This document shows, piece after piece, positions 24,601-30,600 of a stretch of DNA of 64,000 bases. A program made the position numbers and the translations under genes. The stretch comes from Mobula hypostoma (Eukaryota): contig NC_086108.1 in assembly GCF_963921235.1 (NCBI RefSeq), forward strand, positions 35,032,001 through 35,096,000, written 5' to 3'. The notes beneath the pieces are model-generated. The model ran no database searches. It had not been told where the DNA came from and saw only the letters and a program-made list of their open reading frames with translations. Position 1 is the first letter of the stretch; each line of letters opens with the position of its first letter.

Positions 24601-27600
24601 TATGTCAAGTCTCGAACATTTGTCCCCAATATCTGGAATTAAAGCATATTCCATGTTACTAAACTGAAATAAAGTACAGGAGACAGACACCTGCTCTGAA
24701 TTTTGCCTCCCTATCCCTAATGTCCTGTTTGGATTGTTAATGTGCAAGCTGTCCCCATGCCTCAAAGCAAGGCATTCTCTATATTTCAGTGAAGAAATTG
24801 CAAGTCAGAAGAATAACTATTGCATGATGACTTAAAGCTGACTATCTACTCAAGCTCATAGGTAGATCAAATTGGCAGATGACATGTAGCCAACAGCAAA
24901 GCAGTTCCCTGTGTGGAGCAGGTAAAAGGTACATAAAGACAACAGCTAAAGAACTTTGTTCCCAGCTTCTGTTTCCAATCCTAAGGCTGGTAGTCTTTCT
25001 GGACTGAGTGCCATCTCAACATAGAATATCATCTAATGTATGGTTGTGGCTTCTCTGTCCAGGATATTGATGGGGCTGGGAAATTTGCTGGATGTCAGAA
25101 CTCTAGGTGGTCATTCTGTGGCAAAGTGTTACTTTTCACTTATCAAATGTGAATTTACCCAATGTAGAGCACAGGTGTACGCTGTCATCATCAGTTAAAA
25201 TGCCTACTTTAAGCTCCAAGTGCAGTTTCACATTTCTTCACTACATCATTAGTGGTACATTCACCCAGAGTGCATTTTTGTACTCTCTTTTAATCTTAAT
25301 GCTTCTATCAAGTGGTGCTCATTGTAATGGATTTCTGATACATCAGCGCTGAGTGGTAATCTGCAGGAGTTTTCTTTACTCTGGTTTGACCTTGTACTAT
25401 AAGATTCATCACGTTATGTCATATCACCTTCAGAGACCCTGTTGAAGGTGGTGAAAGAATTAGGAACTTTTGCTGAAACATTTAGTAGTAAGGTTTGGAT
25501 AATGTCGTCCTTTGGGTGTTGAAGCCAAAGTTATCAAGGTTCCTAAATAATAAAGAGATCTAGAGAATGTTCATCCAGCTAGTTTGCTCCAGCTTTAACA
25601 GATGCCAATTAAATATCTCAGCTTTGATATTTCCCAGATTTTAGTGAAGGGTATTTGTGGGCATACCTTTTACGCGTGTTTTGTGCCCGGATTGACGCTG
25701 AATGAGCCTGTAAACCAGATTAATTTAACTTAATGCTGTAATGTTAGAAAGCTCCACCTGTGGAGGGATGAAAATGAGGTTTACAGAATTTAAAGAACTT
25801 GAGGGAAAAAAGCTATGGGAGAACGAGGCTTGGCTGACGCAGTGCAGGAAAGCGAGAGAAACGCAGCAAACTATTAGAATCTAAAGATATAAACTGTTAG
25901 AAGTGTAATTAGTAGTAAGTACCTCGACCCTACTTATTTGAAACCCCTGGAGGAGAGACAATAGAGATAAAAGATCTATTGAAGCTATAGCTATAACGAG
26001 CAGCAGCCCTAAAATGAGACAACATCGGTAGAGACGAGTGTCCAAGATTGCTACCGTGTAACCGGGAATTGGTTCTGTTAAGTTATGCCAAGGGATTTGG
26101 TCAGGTTTCTTTTGTATAAGTTTGGGAATTGACTTTCCCTGGATGATCAACTAATTCAACCAAACAAGATGGCAGGCCACCCAAGATGAAGAACCAGTGC
26201 AGGAACGAATTGTTTCATGACATAGAGGATTTAATACAATTGGATGTACAAGTTTATTTTCATTCAAAGCATCTGAATTTGATTTTCTGCAATAACTGAT
26301 TATTTTTGCCAAGATTTTGATATGTTACTGAATGAGATTTACTTTGTTTAAAAGTTGTGATGTTGGAGAATTATTGTGAAAGGAGTTGAGCTGTATAGAT
26401 ATATAATTTTTCAATTTCAATTTGTAGATATACTGACTTGAACTGAAACCTGAAGTTAACCATAATACTTAAGAATAGGAATTCAATTAGTTTTCTAACT
26501 AGGTTAGTCTGTATACCTTTAAACGGGAAATAACACTAACTACAATTTCTCTAACTAATTAGATTAACAAAGGTTATTCTAATGAATGTCACTGGTTCTA
26601 CCTAAGCAGAAGTTTGTTTTTTGTTGATATCTGAGATTTGGAACGACAGAATGTGGGAATTTTAATTGTTATTCATGTAAATATTTTGTATATCTTGATT
26701 TTTATATAGAGATATAAAGCCTGTTCCAATGCCTAGAGCTTCTGATGGCCTACTAGCACCTAGCATAGTACTATGTCATTTGATTTTTCTCATAAAGAGT
26801 GTGGTGACCAGTCGCATGAGACAAGATGAGCGCTACACAGGTGTTACAAACCATCTGGTTTACTAAGTTTCATGTGGTAGTTTGATACAACTTCGTGGAA
26901 TGCTATATCATTTAAAGGTATAGTTGTATGTAGTCATGTCTGCACTGTATTAATCTAATTTTTACCCCTAATAAAGTTGTCTTTTTATTGGTAGAGCCAG
27001 CTGAAAGTGGACTTGATTAATGAAAAGGAGATGCAAGCAAAGCTCAAACCCATGATTGTGGAATGTCCAGAACAAGAAAAGAGTGAAATACAAGCAATGA
27101 ATGAGACAGTAGAAAAGAAAAAGGATGCCTTGGTATGAATGTCCCTGTAAAATTTTAGATCGTACACCGCCATCTTTTGCTGGCAGCTGTTTGCTAACTT
27201 GTTTAAGGTTCCACTTGTTTTTCAGACCATATAATATTGTTCAAACGAGAAAATCTACAGATCCTGGAAATCCAAACAACACACTCAAAATGCTGGAGGA
27301 ACACTCCAGGTTAGGCAGCATATATGGAAAAGATTAAACAGTTGACTTTTCAGCCCGAAATATCGACTGCTTGCTCTTTTTCATAAATGCCACCTGACCT
27401 ATTAAGTTCTTCCAGCATTTTGTGTGTTGCATGATACTGTCAGTTTTTCCCCGTTCTAATTTTTAAGTGAAAAAATATTAAGAAGCAAATAGCTTTTGTG
27501 CAATAGTCAAAAAGTATCATTGTTTTAGTCTCAAACAACAGGAATTCTGCAGATACTGGAAATTCAAGCAACACACATCAAAGTTGCTGGTGAACGCAGC

Positions 27601-30600
27601 AGGCCAGGCAGCATCTGTAGGAAGAGGTGCAGTCGACGTTTCAGGCCGAGACCCTTCGTCAGGACTAACTGAAGGAAGAGTGAGTAAGGGATTTGAAAGT
27701 TGGAGGGGGAGGGGGAGATCCAAAATGATAGGAGAAGACAGGAGGGGGGAGGACCTCCTGTCCCATGATCCTCTCATATCCCCTTTTGCCTATCACCTGT
27801 CCAGCTCTTGGCTCTATTCCTCCCCCTCCTGTCTTCTCCTATCATTTTGGATCTCCCCCTCCCCCTCCAACTTTCAAATCCCTTACTCACTCTTCCTTCA
27901 GTTAGTCCTGACGAAGGGTCTCGGCCTGAAACGTCGACTGCACCTCTTCCTACAGATGCTGCCTGGCCTGCTGCATTCACCAGCAACTTTAATGTGTGTT
28001 GATTGTTTTAGTCTAACTATTTTGTGAATTGCTTTTTGCGTCCACATCTTAGGTTAGAAGAATTCTTCAAATAACACACCTTAATGGACTTTTCCTACCA
28101 GTTTTGGAATTTTTATTCTGATTGGGTTCTTTCTCGGTCTCTTTTTCTCCCATGGTATCAATTACCTAAATTTCTGAACATCTTACGATCATTCTGAATC
28201 TGCTGTAGGATCCATTCTCAATAAATTTTTCTTCTTCATCTTGTTTTATGGCGTTTGGCACCCAGCTTAATGGTGCATTACCGCCACCTTCTGCTCTGGA
28301 GTGTGCAATAGACTTGCTTTCTAAATCCCTTTACCCAATCAATATCTATCTATCTCTCTCTCTCTCTCTCTCTCTCTCTCACACACACACACACACACAC
28401 ACACACACACACACACACACACACACACACACACACACACACACACACACCCTAACCTACACTTTATCCTTCCATCTTTGGCCATATGCTTATCTGTCAT
28501 ATCCTATATATAAAAAAAACCAGTACCCCTTAAGAAAGTTAAAAATTCCCTATCCTGTGCTCTCTCACCCATGCCCAGCAACCCTTTTAATGTGAATTCC
28601 TGCACCCCCAGTTCCCTTAGATTAATTCTGATCATCTCTCTCTGTATCCCATACTTCCTGCAACTCAGAACTACATGTTCTGCTGACTCCTCTTCCTGAC
28701 ATTCCTCACACAATCCTGTCTGGTGTTTCCCTATCATTTTCTATGTTTTGTTTAATGCACAGTGCCCCAGCCTTAACCTAGTCCACACAGTTTCCTCTCT
28801 TCTGTTTCCACTACCTACCCTAGTACCTGCAACACTTCTTTGTATTTGATATAAATGCTTCCCTTTCCCCTCCCTGTCCCATCTTTGTTGCCACATTTGG
28901 TTGATTTTTTTCCCAGATTACACACTTAATCTCTGCTTTACTGATACTAATGTGCATTCCTATATTTTCTTTCTTTAATGCCTTCTTTGCCAAATCATTC
29001 ACCCTCTCATTTCCCTTCACCACTACATGTGCTGGAACTCGTAGAAATTTTACCTGACCTCCCTGATTTGCAATTCTTGTGACTGACTGAATGACTTCAT
29101 AAAGTACATCTTGCCAACTGTTTGTGTGAAAAGACCTTAAACTTGCTAGAACTGAGGATGAATCTGAGCATATCAACACTTTGACTTGTCTAACTTTCTC
29201 CACCCATCACAACGCAACCAACACCGCCAGCATCTCCACTCTATACACCTCTAACTTATTAGATGTTCTTCTGCTGATTTCAATTTCTTTTGCTGGTATA
29301 GCCATCCTAATCCCTGTCACTCCTGTTTCAGGTTCCTTAGCACCATCCGTATAAATGTGAGTATAATCACTATGCTTTTCCATCACATGACAGTTAAATG
29401 CACTTACCAAATGAGTTTTATATTTTCCTATCCTTTTTACCTCTAACAAATGCCAGTCTATATCAGGCCATACAAGTTTCCATGGAGCTGCGACTGGATA
29501 AACTACTGAAGGACTTATCCTTAGGTCAAACACTCCACATTCTTTAGCAATATCATTCCCTACCCGACTAAAGTTATCCCTCTGAAACCTCCCATTTTCC
29601 CAGCATTCCTGCAACACTCCTTTAGCAGGGTGAGAATCATTGTGTCCCTGCAAATTAGCCGAGTAGTTTCCCATCAATTGCATCCTTCTTAGTTCCAAAG
29701 GCATTACTCCCATTTCTACCTGTAGGGCTGATACTGGTGATGTTTTAAAAGCCCCACTGCACACTTTCAAAGCCTGAGCCTGAATCACATCCAGTTTCCT
29801 TAAAAGAGACATAGCTGCTGATCCATATGCTATATTTCCATAGTCCAACACAGATTTCACTTGCTCCCCATTCCCTACCAGTCAAACATCTTATCACATT
29901 TATTACTTTTTCGCATTTCTCCTCAACTTTCCTGATATGGTCTGCCCATGTTAATCGTGAATCAAATATAACTCCCAGAAATTTTAAATGATCCAACCCT
30001 TTCTAATTCAATCCCATACATCCTTAACTTCTTCCCTACCTCAATTCTTTTCCTGGTAAAAAGTACAATTTGAGGTTTTTCTACTGAAAATCTACATCCC
30101 CAATCATAACCCCACTCCACCACTTCATCAATTTTTATTCTTCTTGCTGTCAATTTTGTGCTGTTGCTTGAGGAAAACACTTGACAAAATCCGAAAGTCA
30201 TCACTCCTAAACAATATAACTTTTTCTGTGTTGCAACCTGACAATCAAGCACTAAACTACTGTTCTAAGCCATCAATAACCACCTTTTCAAGATCACCCC
30301 CAACCCTGCACAGCATGTTTCTACATTCTTTCCAAGATCCATAAACAAAACTACTCTGGTTCTTTTCCTGTCCCTTTGAATGAGGTTTTCCTGTCATTTC
30401 TATTTCTTATTTCAGATTTTAAGGACATCTGACAATTTTTAGCTTTCTGATCTTAACTGGTGCCTTTTTTCCATGGATGTGTAAGAGAACATTAGATTTG
30501 GGTTACATAAGATATGATTGAAATGTTATCCTGCAACTGAAATCAATTCCATATTTTATCAATGACCAATATCTTCAAAATTTGTAAGATCTGCTCTATT

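Follow-up and report, generated by a model that had tools for sequence, protein, structure and literature searches.

How did a 470-bp insert with two near-identical inverted arms arise in an intron of NUF2 in the devil ray Mobula hypostoma, and does it do anything for its host? The insert lies in a 64,000-nucleotide stretch of contig NC_086108.1 (positions 35,032,001 to 35,096,000; hereafter the window, whose own numbering is used throughout). The original prediction had described it as a recent, fold-back Penelope-like insertion with two inverted hammerhead ribozymes. We consider it fairly probable that two 5'-truncated copies of the pseudo-long terminal repeat (pLTR) of an abundant Penelope-like element (PLE) lie head to head here, likely formed by a single event, and that the pair is likely a neutral relic. 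The location in NUF2 was as predicted: ten exon peptides are identical to M. hypostoma NUF2 (P0001), and the insert falls within the intron at 27133-31086, bounded by exons at 26995-27132 (plus strand; peptide match and a spliced contig in run X9) and 31087-31230 (plus strand; peptide match). The runs compared were X1, X5 (organism B) and X10 (organism C), all contigs of DNA runs, and X9, which we guess to be RNA; a search for runs containing the sequence listed none recorded as RNA. A 3,426-nt contig of X9 covers the upstream NUF2 exon only, as expected of spliced mRNA.

The 470 bp (27532-28001) are flanked by an exact 13-bp target site duplication (TSD), with its left copy at 27519-27531 and its right copy at 28002-28014. 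This 13-mer occurs only at these two places in the whole window. Of 300 random position pairs given equal slack, 287 had no flanking exact repeat of at least 6 nt, and the longest among the others measured 9 nt. Self-alignment revealed inverted arms of 184 nt that are 98% complementary when aligned ungapped. A gapped alignment of 27569-27753 with 27817-28001 leaves two substitutions (A27975 and A27991 in the right arm) and one homopolymer indel, a divergence of 1.1%. The direct repeats, the near-identical arms and the extra tail of about 37 bp on the left arm were therefore all found as described in the original prediction. A 181-codon stop-free frame at 27482-28024 was set aside, being intronic and palindromic and spanning both TSD copies.

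The left arm (27569-27753) is a 5'-truncated pLTR copy with its element sense on the minus strand. Only this arm carries the 37-nt Penelope-type 3' tail (27532-27568, minus strand), which by alignment ends at about +108 to +114 from G12 of the hammerhead described below, as in related copies at 19.6, 24.2 and 27.25 kb. The right arm (27817-28001) is a tail-less pLTR copy with its element sense on the plus strand, sense to NUF2; its 3' end at +74 from G12 resembles those of copies at 27.25 kb (+75) and 33.5 kb (+77). The element 3' ends face outward toward both TSD copies and the truncated 5' ends meet centrally. Between the arms a spacer of about 64 bp had been proposed. Its length was right (63-64 nt; 27754-27816, plus strand), but the segment belongs to the right arm, which it extends in the 5' direction, and is no neutral loop. 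This follows from the solo copy at 33.5 kb (33638-33883), which matches across spacer and arm at 91%, and from family contigs in which the two are joined. Each arm contains sequence of its own, the tail on the left and the 64-nt extension on the right, so that neither is a plain copy of the other and the term fold-back is not supported. The inversion junction (27751-27753) is a 3-nt microhomology fitting either arm within a short palindrome; the left arm aligns through 27753, and family contigs match the plus arm from 27751 (40 in X1 and 41 in X5). Opposite-strand joints at 27744/27821 were seen in contigs of both these runs. The central junction also holds a 9-bp inverted pair with an 8-nt loop (27737-27745/27754-27762), which comes from an internal direct repeat of the element.

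Judged by its sequence, the insert is very probably a PLE. It combines an inverted pLTR, 5' truncation, a 37-nt tail at one end and a hammerhead within the pLTR, and its 13-bp TSD is matched by an apparently empty site in a relative, where an X10 contig ends at the TSD. The insert itself has no open reading frame (ORF). An older related unit at 19580-21085 (minus strand; identified by alignment and ORF homologues) consists of a pLTR with tail, the decayed N-terminus of an ORF, and a second pLTR with tail. A word-indexed protein search with a 57-amino acid decayed peptide gave no match, and an unindexed protein search with a 132-amino acid stretch of the ORF returned 89 homologues, the best of them from other rays and a shark. 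Fifteen of the 89 were scanned with Pfam: two full-length proteins (P0028 and P0053) contain RVT_1 and GIY-YIG domains, one gave a weak reverse transcriptase (RT) hit, and 12, mostly short or partial proteins, gave neither. Both P0028 and P0053 have DKG and YIDD motifs and a CX4CxxC linker, and they match the window only in the 19580-21085 unit; the linker in these distant homologues hints at the Neptune type. A related pLTR pair thus encloses an ORF with RT and GIY-YIG homologues, which supports the Penelope-like origin that had been proposed. The association with RT and GIY-YIG is found for the wider family and is indirect for the focal subfamily, to which the ORF is linked by kinship because it lies between pLTRs of an older subfamily. 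The 19580-21085 unit is internally deleted: ORF homology ends just before PADKG, the DNA then runs into a pLTR starting at the hammerhead, and the upstream pLTR likewise starts within the hammerhead.

Each arm contains a minimal type I hammerhead of the dimer type, as the original prediction had it. The left-arm copy (27630-27667, minus strand; descriptor match, mirrored layout) is antisense in the NUF2 pre-mRNA and has C17 at 27635; the right-arm copy (27903-27940, plus strand) is sense. In the latter, stem I (27903-27907/27936-27940) encloses the core CUGACGA (27908-27914), an extra A, stem II (27916-27927), GAAA, a zero-loop palindromic ACGU and C17 at 27935, after which cleavage is predicted. 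A strict descriptor matched only these two sites in the window and none in 200 mononucleotide shuffles. The CUGANGA and GAAA boxes, the NUH site, stems I and II and the palindromic zero-loop helix III are all present. The description of the cores as intact holds for boxes and stems and fails at position 11.1, which is U in both arms (27927 in the sense copy), giving a G10.1-U11.1 wobble, and C in all five other window copies that clearly show this position. The G10.1-C11.1 pair that is absent here is a conserved, though not absolute, feature of minimal hammerheads (Cervera and De la Pena, 2014; PMC4209133). Rfam hammerhead families gave no hit in the window at the gathering threshold, and the four weak hits at E up to 10 included no hammerhead. 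The hammerhead pattern had no match in viral contigs and none in metagenome contigs.

Folding predictions suggest that the sense ribozyme is masked by its antisense copy, as had been proposed. The whole insert folds with a minimum free energy of -402 kcal/mol into a predicted 184-bp near-perfect hairpin, in which the sense core pairs with the left arm. For the sense hammerhead stems the predicted probability falls from about 0.9 in the 38-mer by itself to about 0.02 in the 71-nt segment 27890-27960, and to below 1e-19 in the whole insert (below 1e-46 for stem I). A modelled active dimer (-11.5 kcal/mol) lies far above the best two-copy fold (-30.3 kcal/mol). Within the window the NUF2 pre-mRNA has just one sense hammerhead with an intact core, so a dimer partner is lacking. 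Minimal hammerheads were inactive as monomers and weakly active as dimers (PMC4209133; likewise PMC6765202), and that of an Anolis PLE had no activity without protein (PMC11167929). In the NUF2 pre-mRNA the antisense arm would be transcribed first and would pair with the sense hammerhead, and the intron would then be spliced out. No cleavage is expected, because the antisense arm pairs with the sense hammerhead and there is no second sense copy to form a dimer.

The window contains six related insertions, at 1-55 (extending beyond the window edge), 19580-21085, 24182-24338, 27241-27430, the focal site and 33527-33886. Three of the six are head-to-head pairs (the focal insert and those at 24.2 and 27.25 kb), and the pLTRs at 19.6 and 21.0 kb are arranged directly. 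Alignment and a TSD search defined an older head-to-head copy at 24182-24338, with a 10-bp TSD and a tail on its minus arm; another at 27241-27430, again tailed on the minus arm, with a decayed TSD of about 10 bp; and a solo tail-less copy of the focal subfamily (91-92%) at 33527-33886 on the plus strand, with a 10-bp TSD and a broken hammerhead core. TSD lengths across the window copies are thus 13, 10, 10 and about 10 bp (decayed); a search for a TSD of the 19.6-21.1 kb unit found none. At 24182-24338 the TSD is exact in spite of 20-25% divergence from other copies, the plus arm ends some 30 nt short of the usual tail-less end, and the arms share just about 20 nt. Measured from G12, the window copies have two classes of 3' end, one at about +74-77 and the other at +108-114; a single outlier lies at +41. 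In each of the three palindromes exactly one arm is tailed, and the arm without a tail is the longer on the 5' side: the excess is 64 nt in one, about 43 nt in another and about 5 nt in the last, where it is ambiguous. With three cases this asymmetry is a hint only. The two focal arms also share private variants (U11.1 and T27817).

The family is plainly very abundant. The numbers of contigs aligned to 26300-27821 were 61,689 (X1), 64,943 (X5), 5,122 (X9) and 23,608 (X10), and summed contig depth, which is not a copy number, ran to millions on the arm versus 5.7-12 on unique flank. The largest piles of loose contig ends shown were at 27630 (217, 236 and 246 contigs in X1, X5 and X10) and 27666 (261, 271 and 266), the two edges of stem I. 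Divergent subfamilies therefore share exactly the hammerhead, which places conservation at the level of the element and not of the host. Neighbouring copies have decayed freely, hammerhead cores included. The ribozyme would accordingly travel as a passenger, conserved for the element. Both substitutions between the focal arms lie outside the ribozyme, an outcome with a chance of about 0.6 without selection; an undamaged core needs no selection, because the arms differ by just two substitutions.

Contigs of the DNA runs place the insertion in time. At 26784-27552 the X1 contigs examined do not differ from the window, and one extends 21 nt into the tail. In X5, 804 flank letters contain 11 differences (1.4%) and a contig extends 23 nt into the tail. 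In X10, 31 differences in 501 letters and 12 in 150 (6-8%) were counted, and the contig ends exactly at 27531, the last letter of the left TSD copy, with 500 letters unaligned. The simplest reading is that the insert arose after organism C had split off and before the split of organisms A and B, which fits the 1.1% divergence of the arms. The insertion is thus young for its family and not a fresh event. The earlier description of it as recent is not supported, since organism B has the same left junction and the insertion is accordingly older than that split.

How would such a structure form in a single event? We lean towards priming at two nicks. The TSD suggests that, at an AT-rich target, the element's GIY-YIG endonuclease made one nick per strand with an offset of 13 bp. 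Each nick would have primed reverse transcription of element RNA, a distal start yielding the arm with the 37-nt tail and a proximal start the tail-less arm, and both complementary DNAs (cDNAs) would have stopped early and been joined via the 3-nt microhomology. This series of steps would explain why there is a TSD, why only one arm is tailed, why the arms differ in 5' reach and how the junction came about. [quoted passage not shown] A further idea, which we rate as rather unlikely, is that the ray palindromes preserve the traces of a double priming in which a leader and a follower share one RNA. One subunit of the dimeric PLE protein would start at the tail-less site and run ahead, and the second would start 37 nt behind at the tail site, displace the first cDNA and stop short. 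This would explain the single tailed arm, the further 5' reach of the tail-less arm in all three palindromes and the private variants shared by the focal arms.

Several points weigh against the reading of the insert as a head-to-head PLE pair made by two-nick priming. P0028 and P0053 share only 35-36% identity with the query, each has one Pfam score above the curated cut-off and one below it, and the ORF-bearing pLTRs belong to an older subfamily, about 76-83% identical to the focal arm. The 21- and 23-nt reaches into the insert fall short of the 31-nt bar for bridging; the evidence from organism C consists of an alignment end at 27531; and the read-contig check covered the left half of the insert. 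The folding figures are equilibrium predictions only. Two-nick priming was not shown for any PLE insertion in the literature examined. On the priming question only the 2013 paper was found (Arkhipova et al., 2013; PMC3846280), with no newer structural work on PLEs, and it reads junction palindromes as self-priming; the focal junction is palindromic too.

Self-priming is the rival that survives best, although we regard it as unlikely. One cDNA or antisense template would fold back and copy itself into a hairpin, and the endonuclease would trim the tail from one end upon integration. Besides the 2013 proposal, it can draw on endonuclease trimming of tails (Craig et al., 2021; PMC8557442), on the palindromic junction with its 9-bp inverted pair, and on the private variants common to both arms. 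The last would be equally expected if both arms copied one RNA. The tail is the harder problem. The strand that carries the loop is tail-less and so cannot have templated the tail; the tail would first have to be copied from a template that later lost it, and a target-primed cDNA could not supply it. That each arm has sequence absent from the other favours two-nick priming over simple fold-back.

Whether the insert matters to NUF2 is a separate question, and very probably it is inert in its host and likely a neutral relic. That it was kept for regulation, with the hairpin edited by ADAR or cut by Dicer or with the hammerhead cleaving the intron under some condition, seems to us improbable. A long hairpin is a plausible ADAR substrate, and the predicted 184-bp near-perfect hairpin and the presence of the insert in two organisms would both suit a function. 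Change counts were 4 A>G and 5 T>C in X9 versus 7 and 9 in the DNA run X1, and come from multi-copy family contigs that are not locus-specific. Domesticated intronic hammerheads are known in amniotes (PMC6155905), but the arm divergence of 1.1% is about what the flank divergence from organism B (1.4%) leads one to expect without selection, organism C has what looks like an empty site, and the free decay of neighbouring copies extended to their cores. The inactivity of minimal monomers, the low activity of dimers and the dependence of the Anolis ribozyme on protein speak against intron cleavage as well.

Three further observations concern the insert and the intron upstream. Directly 5' of stem I, at 27880-27905 (plus strand), a pyrimidine tract followed by AG (27901; also 27905) is richer in pyrimidines than three real NUF2 acceptors. 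In the Penelope element of D. virilis one intron ends at helix I (PMC4209133), and the tract could be the element's own splice acceptor as well as a cryptic host acceptor that the hairpin would mask. Across 27524-27821 the X9/X1 depth ratio declines from one side of the predicted cut to the other: values 3' of it are 0.118 and 0.084, and those 5' of it are 0.051, followed by 0.014-0.023. A mixture of subfamilies, a start site close by, splicing or cleavage could each produce this drop, and contigs cannot discriminate among them. Part of the upstream intron, at 26300-26830, is itself a multi-copy repeat, with depths of hundreds to thousands in the DNA runs.

A miniature inverted-repeat transposable element (MITE)-like DNA transposon, or a short interspersed nuclear element, mobile as a single unit with long terminal inverted repeats, would also bring inverted arms, a TSD, no ORF and high copy number, but is very improbable: the two ends are not symmetric, the central junction is a different one in each of the three palindromes, there are solo and direct-repeat copies, TSD length varies (10, 10, about 10 and 13 bp) and the linked ORF is of RT type, so that the symmetric terminal inverted repeats, uniform length and fixed TSD of MITEs are missing. 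Equally hard to credit is an assembly artefact: PLE inverted structures do trouble assemblies (PMC8557442) and the read check was limited to the left half, but three differences separate the arms, both of which also have unique sequence, the point where the organism C contig leaves the window agrees with the exact TSD, and left-junction contigs were found in two organisms.

Elsewhere in the window, an 872-codon stop-free frame lies in a NUF2 intron at 36840-39455 (plus strand). By eye we take it to resemble the endonuclease/RT ORF of a long interspersed nuclear element, with similar broken pieces at 12283-14779 (minus strand). Nested AT-rich inverted repeats of 49 and 35 nt at 35718-36104 are possibly a DNA transposon relic. 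A frame at 56887-57222 (minus strand, opposite to NUF2) presumably resembles an RGS-domain exon, again judged by eye.

The locus itself is of little importance, being one inert-looking copy among very many. It can serve as a presence/absence marker between ray lineages, and it identifies an abundant ray repeat as a hammerhead-bearing PLE family that Rfam misses; we found no paper on such a family in devil rays in search listings of the open-licence literature. The asymmetry of tail and truncation in head-to-head pairs offers a cheap genomic test of how PLEs integrate. Should the leader-follower idea be true, this abundant family would permit a direct census of how one-tailed inverted PLE insertions form.

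The layout of the insert has been described for PLEs before, and this is one ordinary copy. A one-tailed, inverted and 5'-truncated copy is considered typical (PMC8557442), pairs of minimal hammerheads on opposite strands 100-700 bp apart were reported in 2014 (PMC4209133), and short intronic 5'-truncated PLE insertions are usual (PMC9977147). With endonuclease-containing (EN+) PLEs (PMC8557442; PMC3846280) the ray insert shares head-to-head pLTRs, a 30-40-nt tail at one end, a TSD, a junction palindrome and a hammerhead near the 3' end. It differs in its ray host, in its TSD (8-10 bp in rotifers versus 13 bp here) and in that both copies are too truncated to contain an ORF. Like the minimal hammerheads of metazoan PLEs (PMC4209133), those of the insert lack a helix III loop, are palindromic at 15.2-16.2, have an extra nucleotide between 9 and 10.1 and have a 4-5-bp helix I, but here G10.1 faces U11.1 instead of C and the predicted stem II has only 4 bp versus 7-8. 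Poseidon_Ac (PAc) of Anolis, a PLE reconstituted in vitro (Frangieh et al., 2024; PMC11167929), also has two 3' end classes a tail length apart downstream of the hammerhead and an AT-rich target; the CX4CxxC linker in the distant ORF homologues of the ray unit is ascribed to Neptune-type and not to Poseidon elements (PMC8557442), and the ray insert is known from sequence only. Animal non-LTR retrozymes (bioRxiv 10.64898/2026.07.22.740005; PMC7229834) similarly place a type I hammerhead in a non-coding PLE-derived repeat. They are head-to-tail tandems with two ribozymes on the same strand, whereas the ray insert is head-to-head with one ribozyme per strand, and it was therefore rejected as a retrozyme, which calls for a head-to-tail tandem with at least two same-strand hammerheads. 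Finally, the insert also differs from classical twin priming of L1 (PMC2912911), which likewise produces an inverted segment, a single TSD and a short microhomology where the inversion is joined. The second L1 priming takes place internally on the same RNA, whereas the ray arms copy the same 184 nt, both start near the 3' end and have no poly(A) tail.

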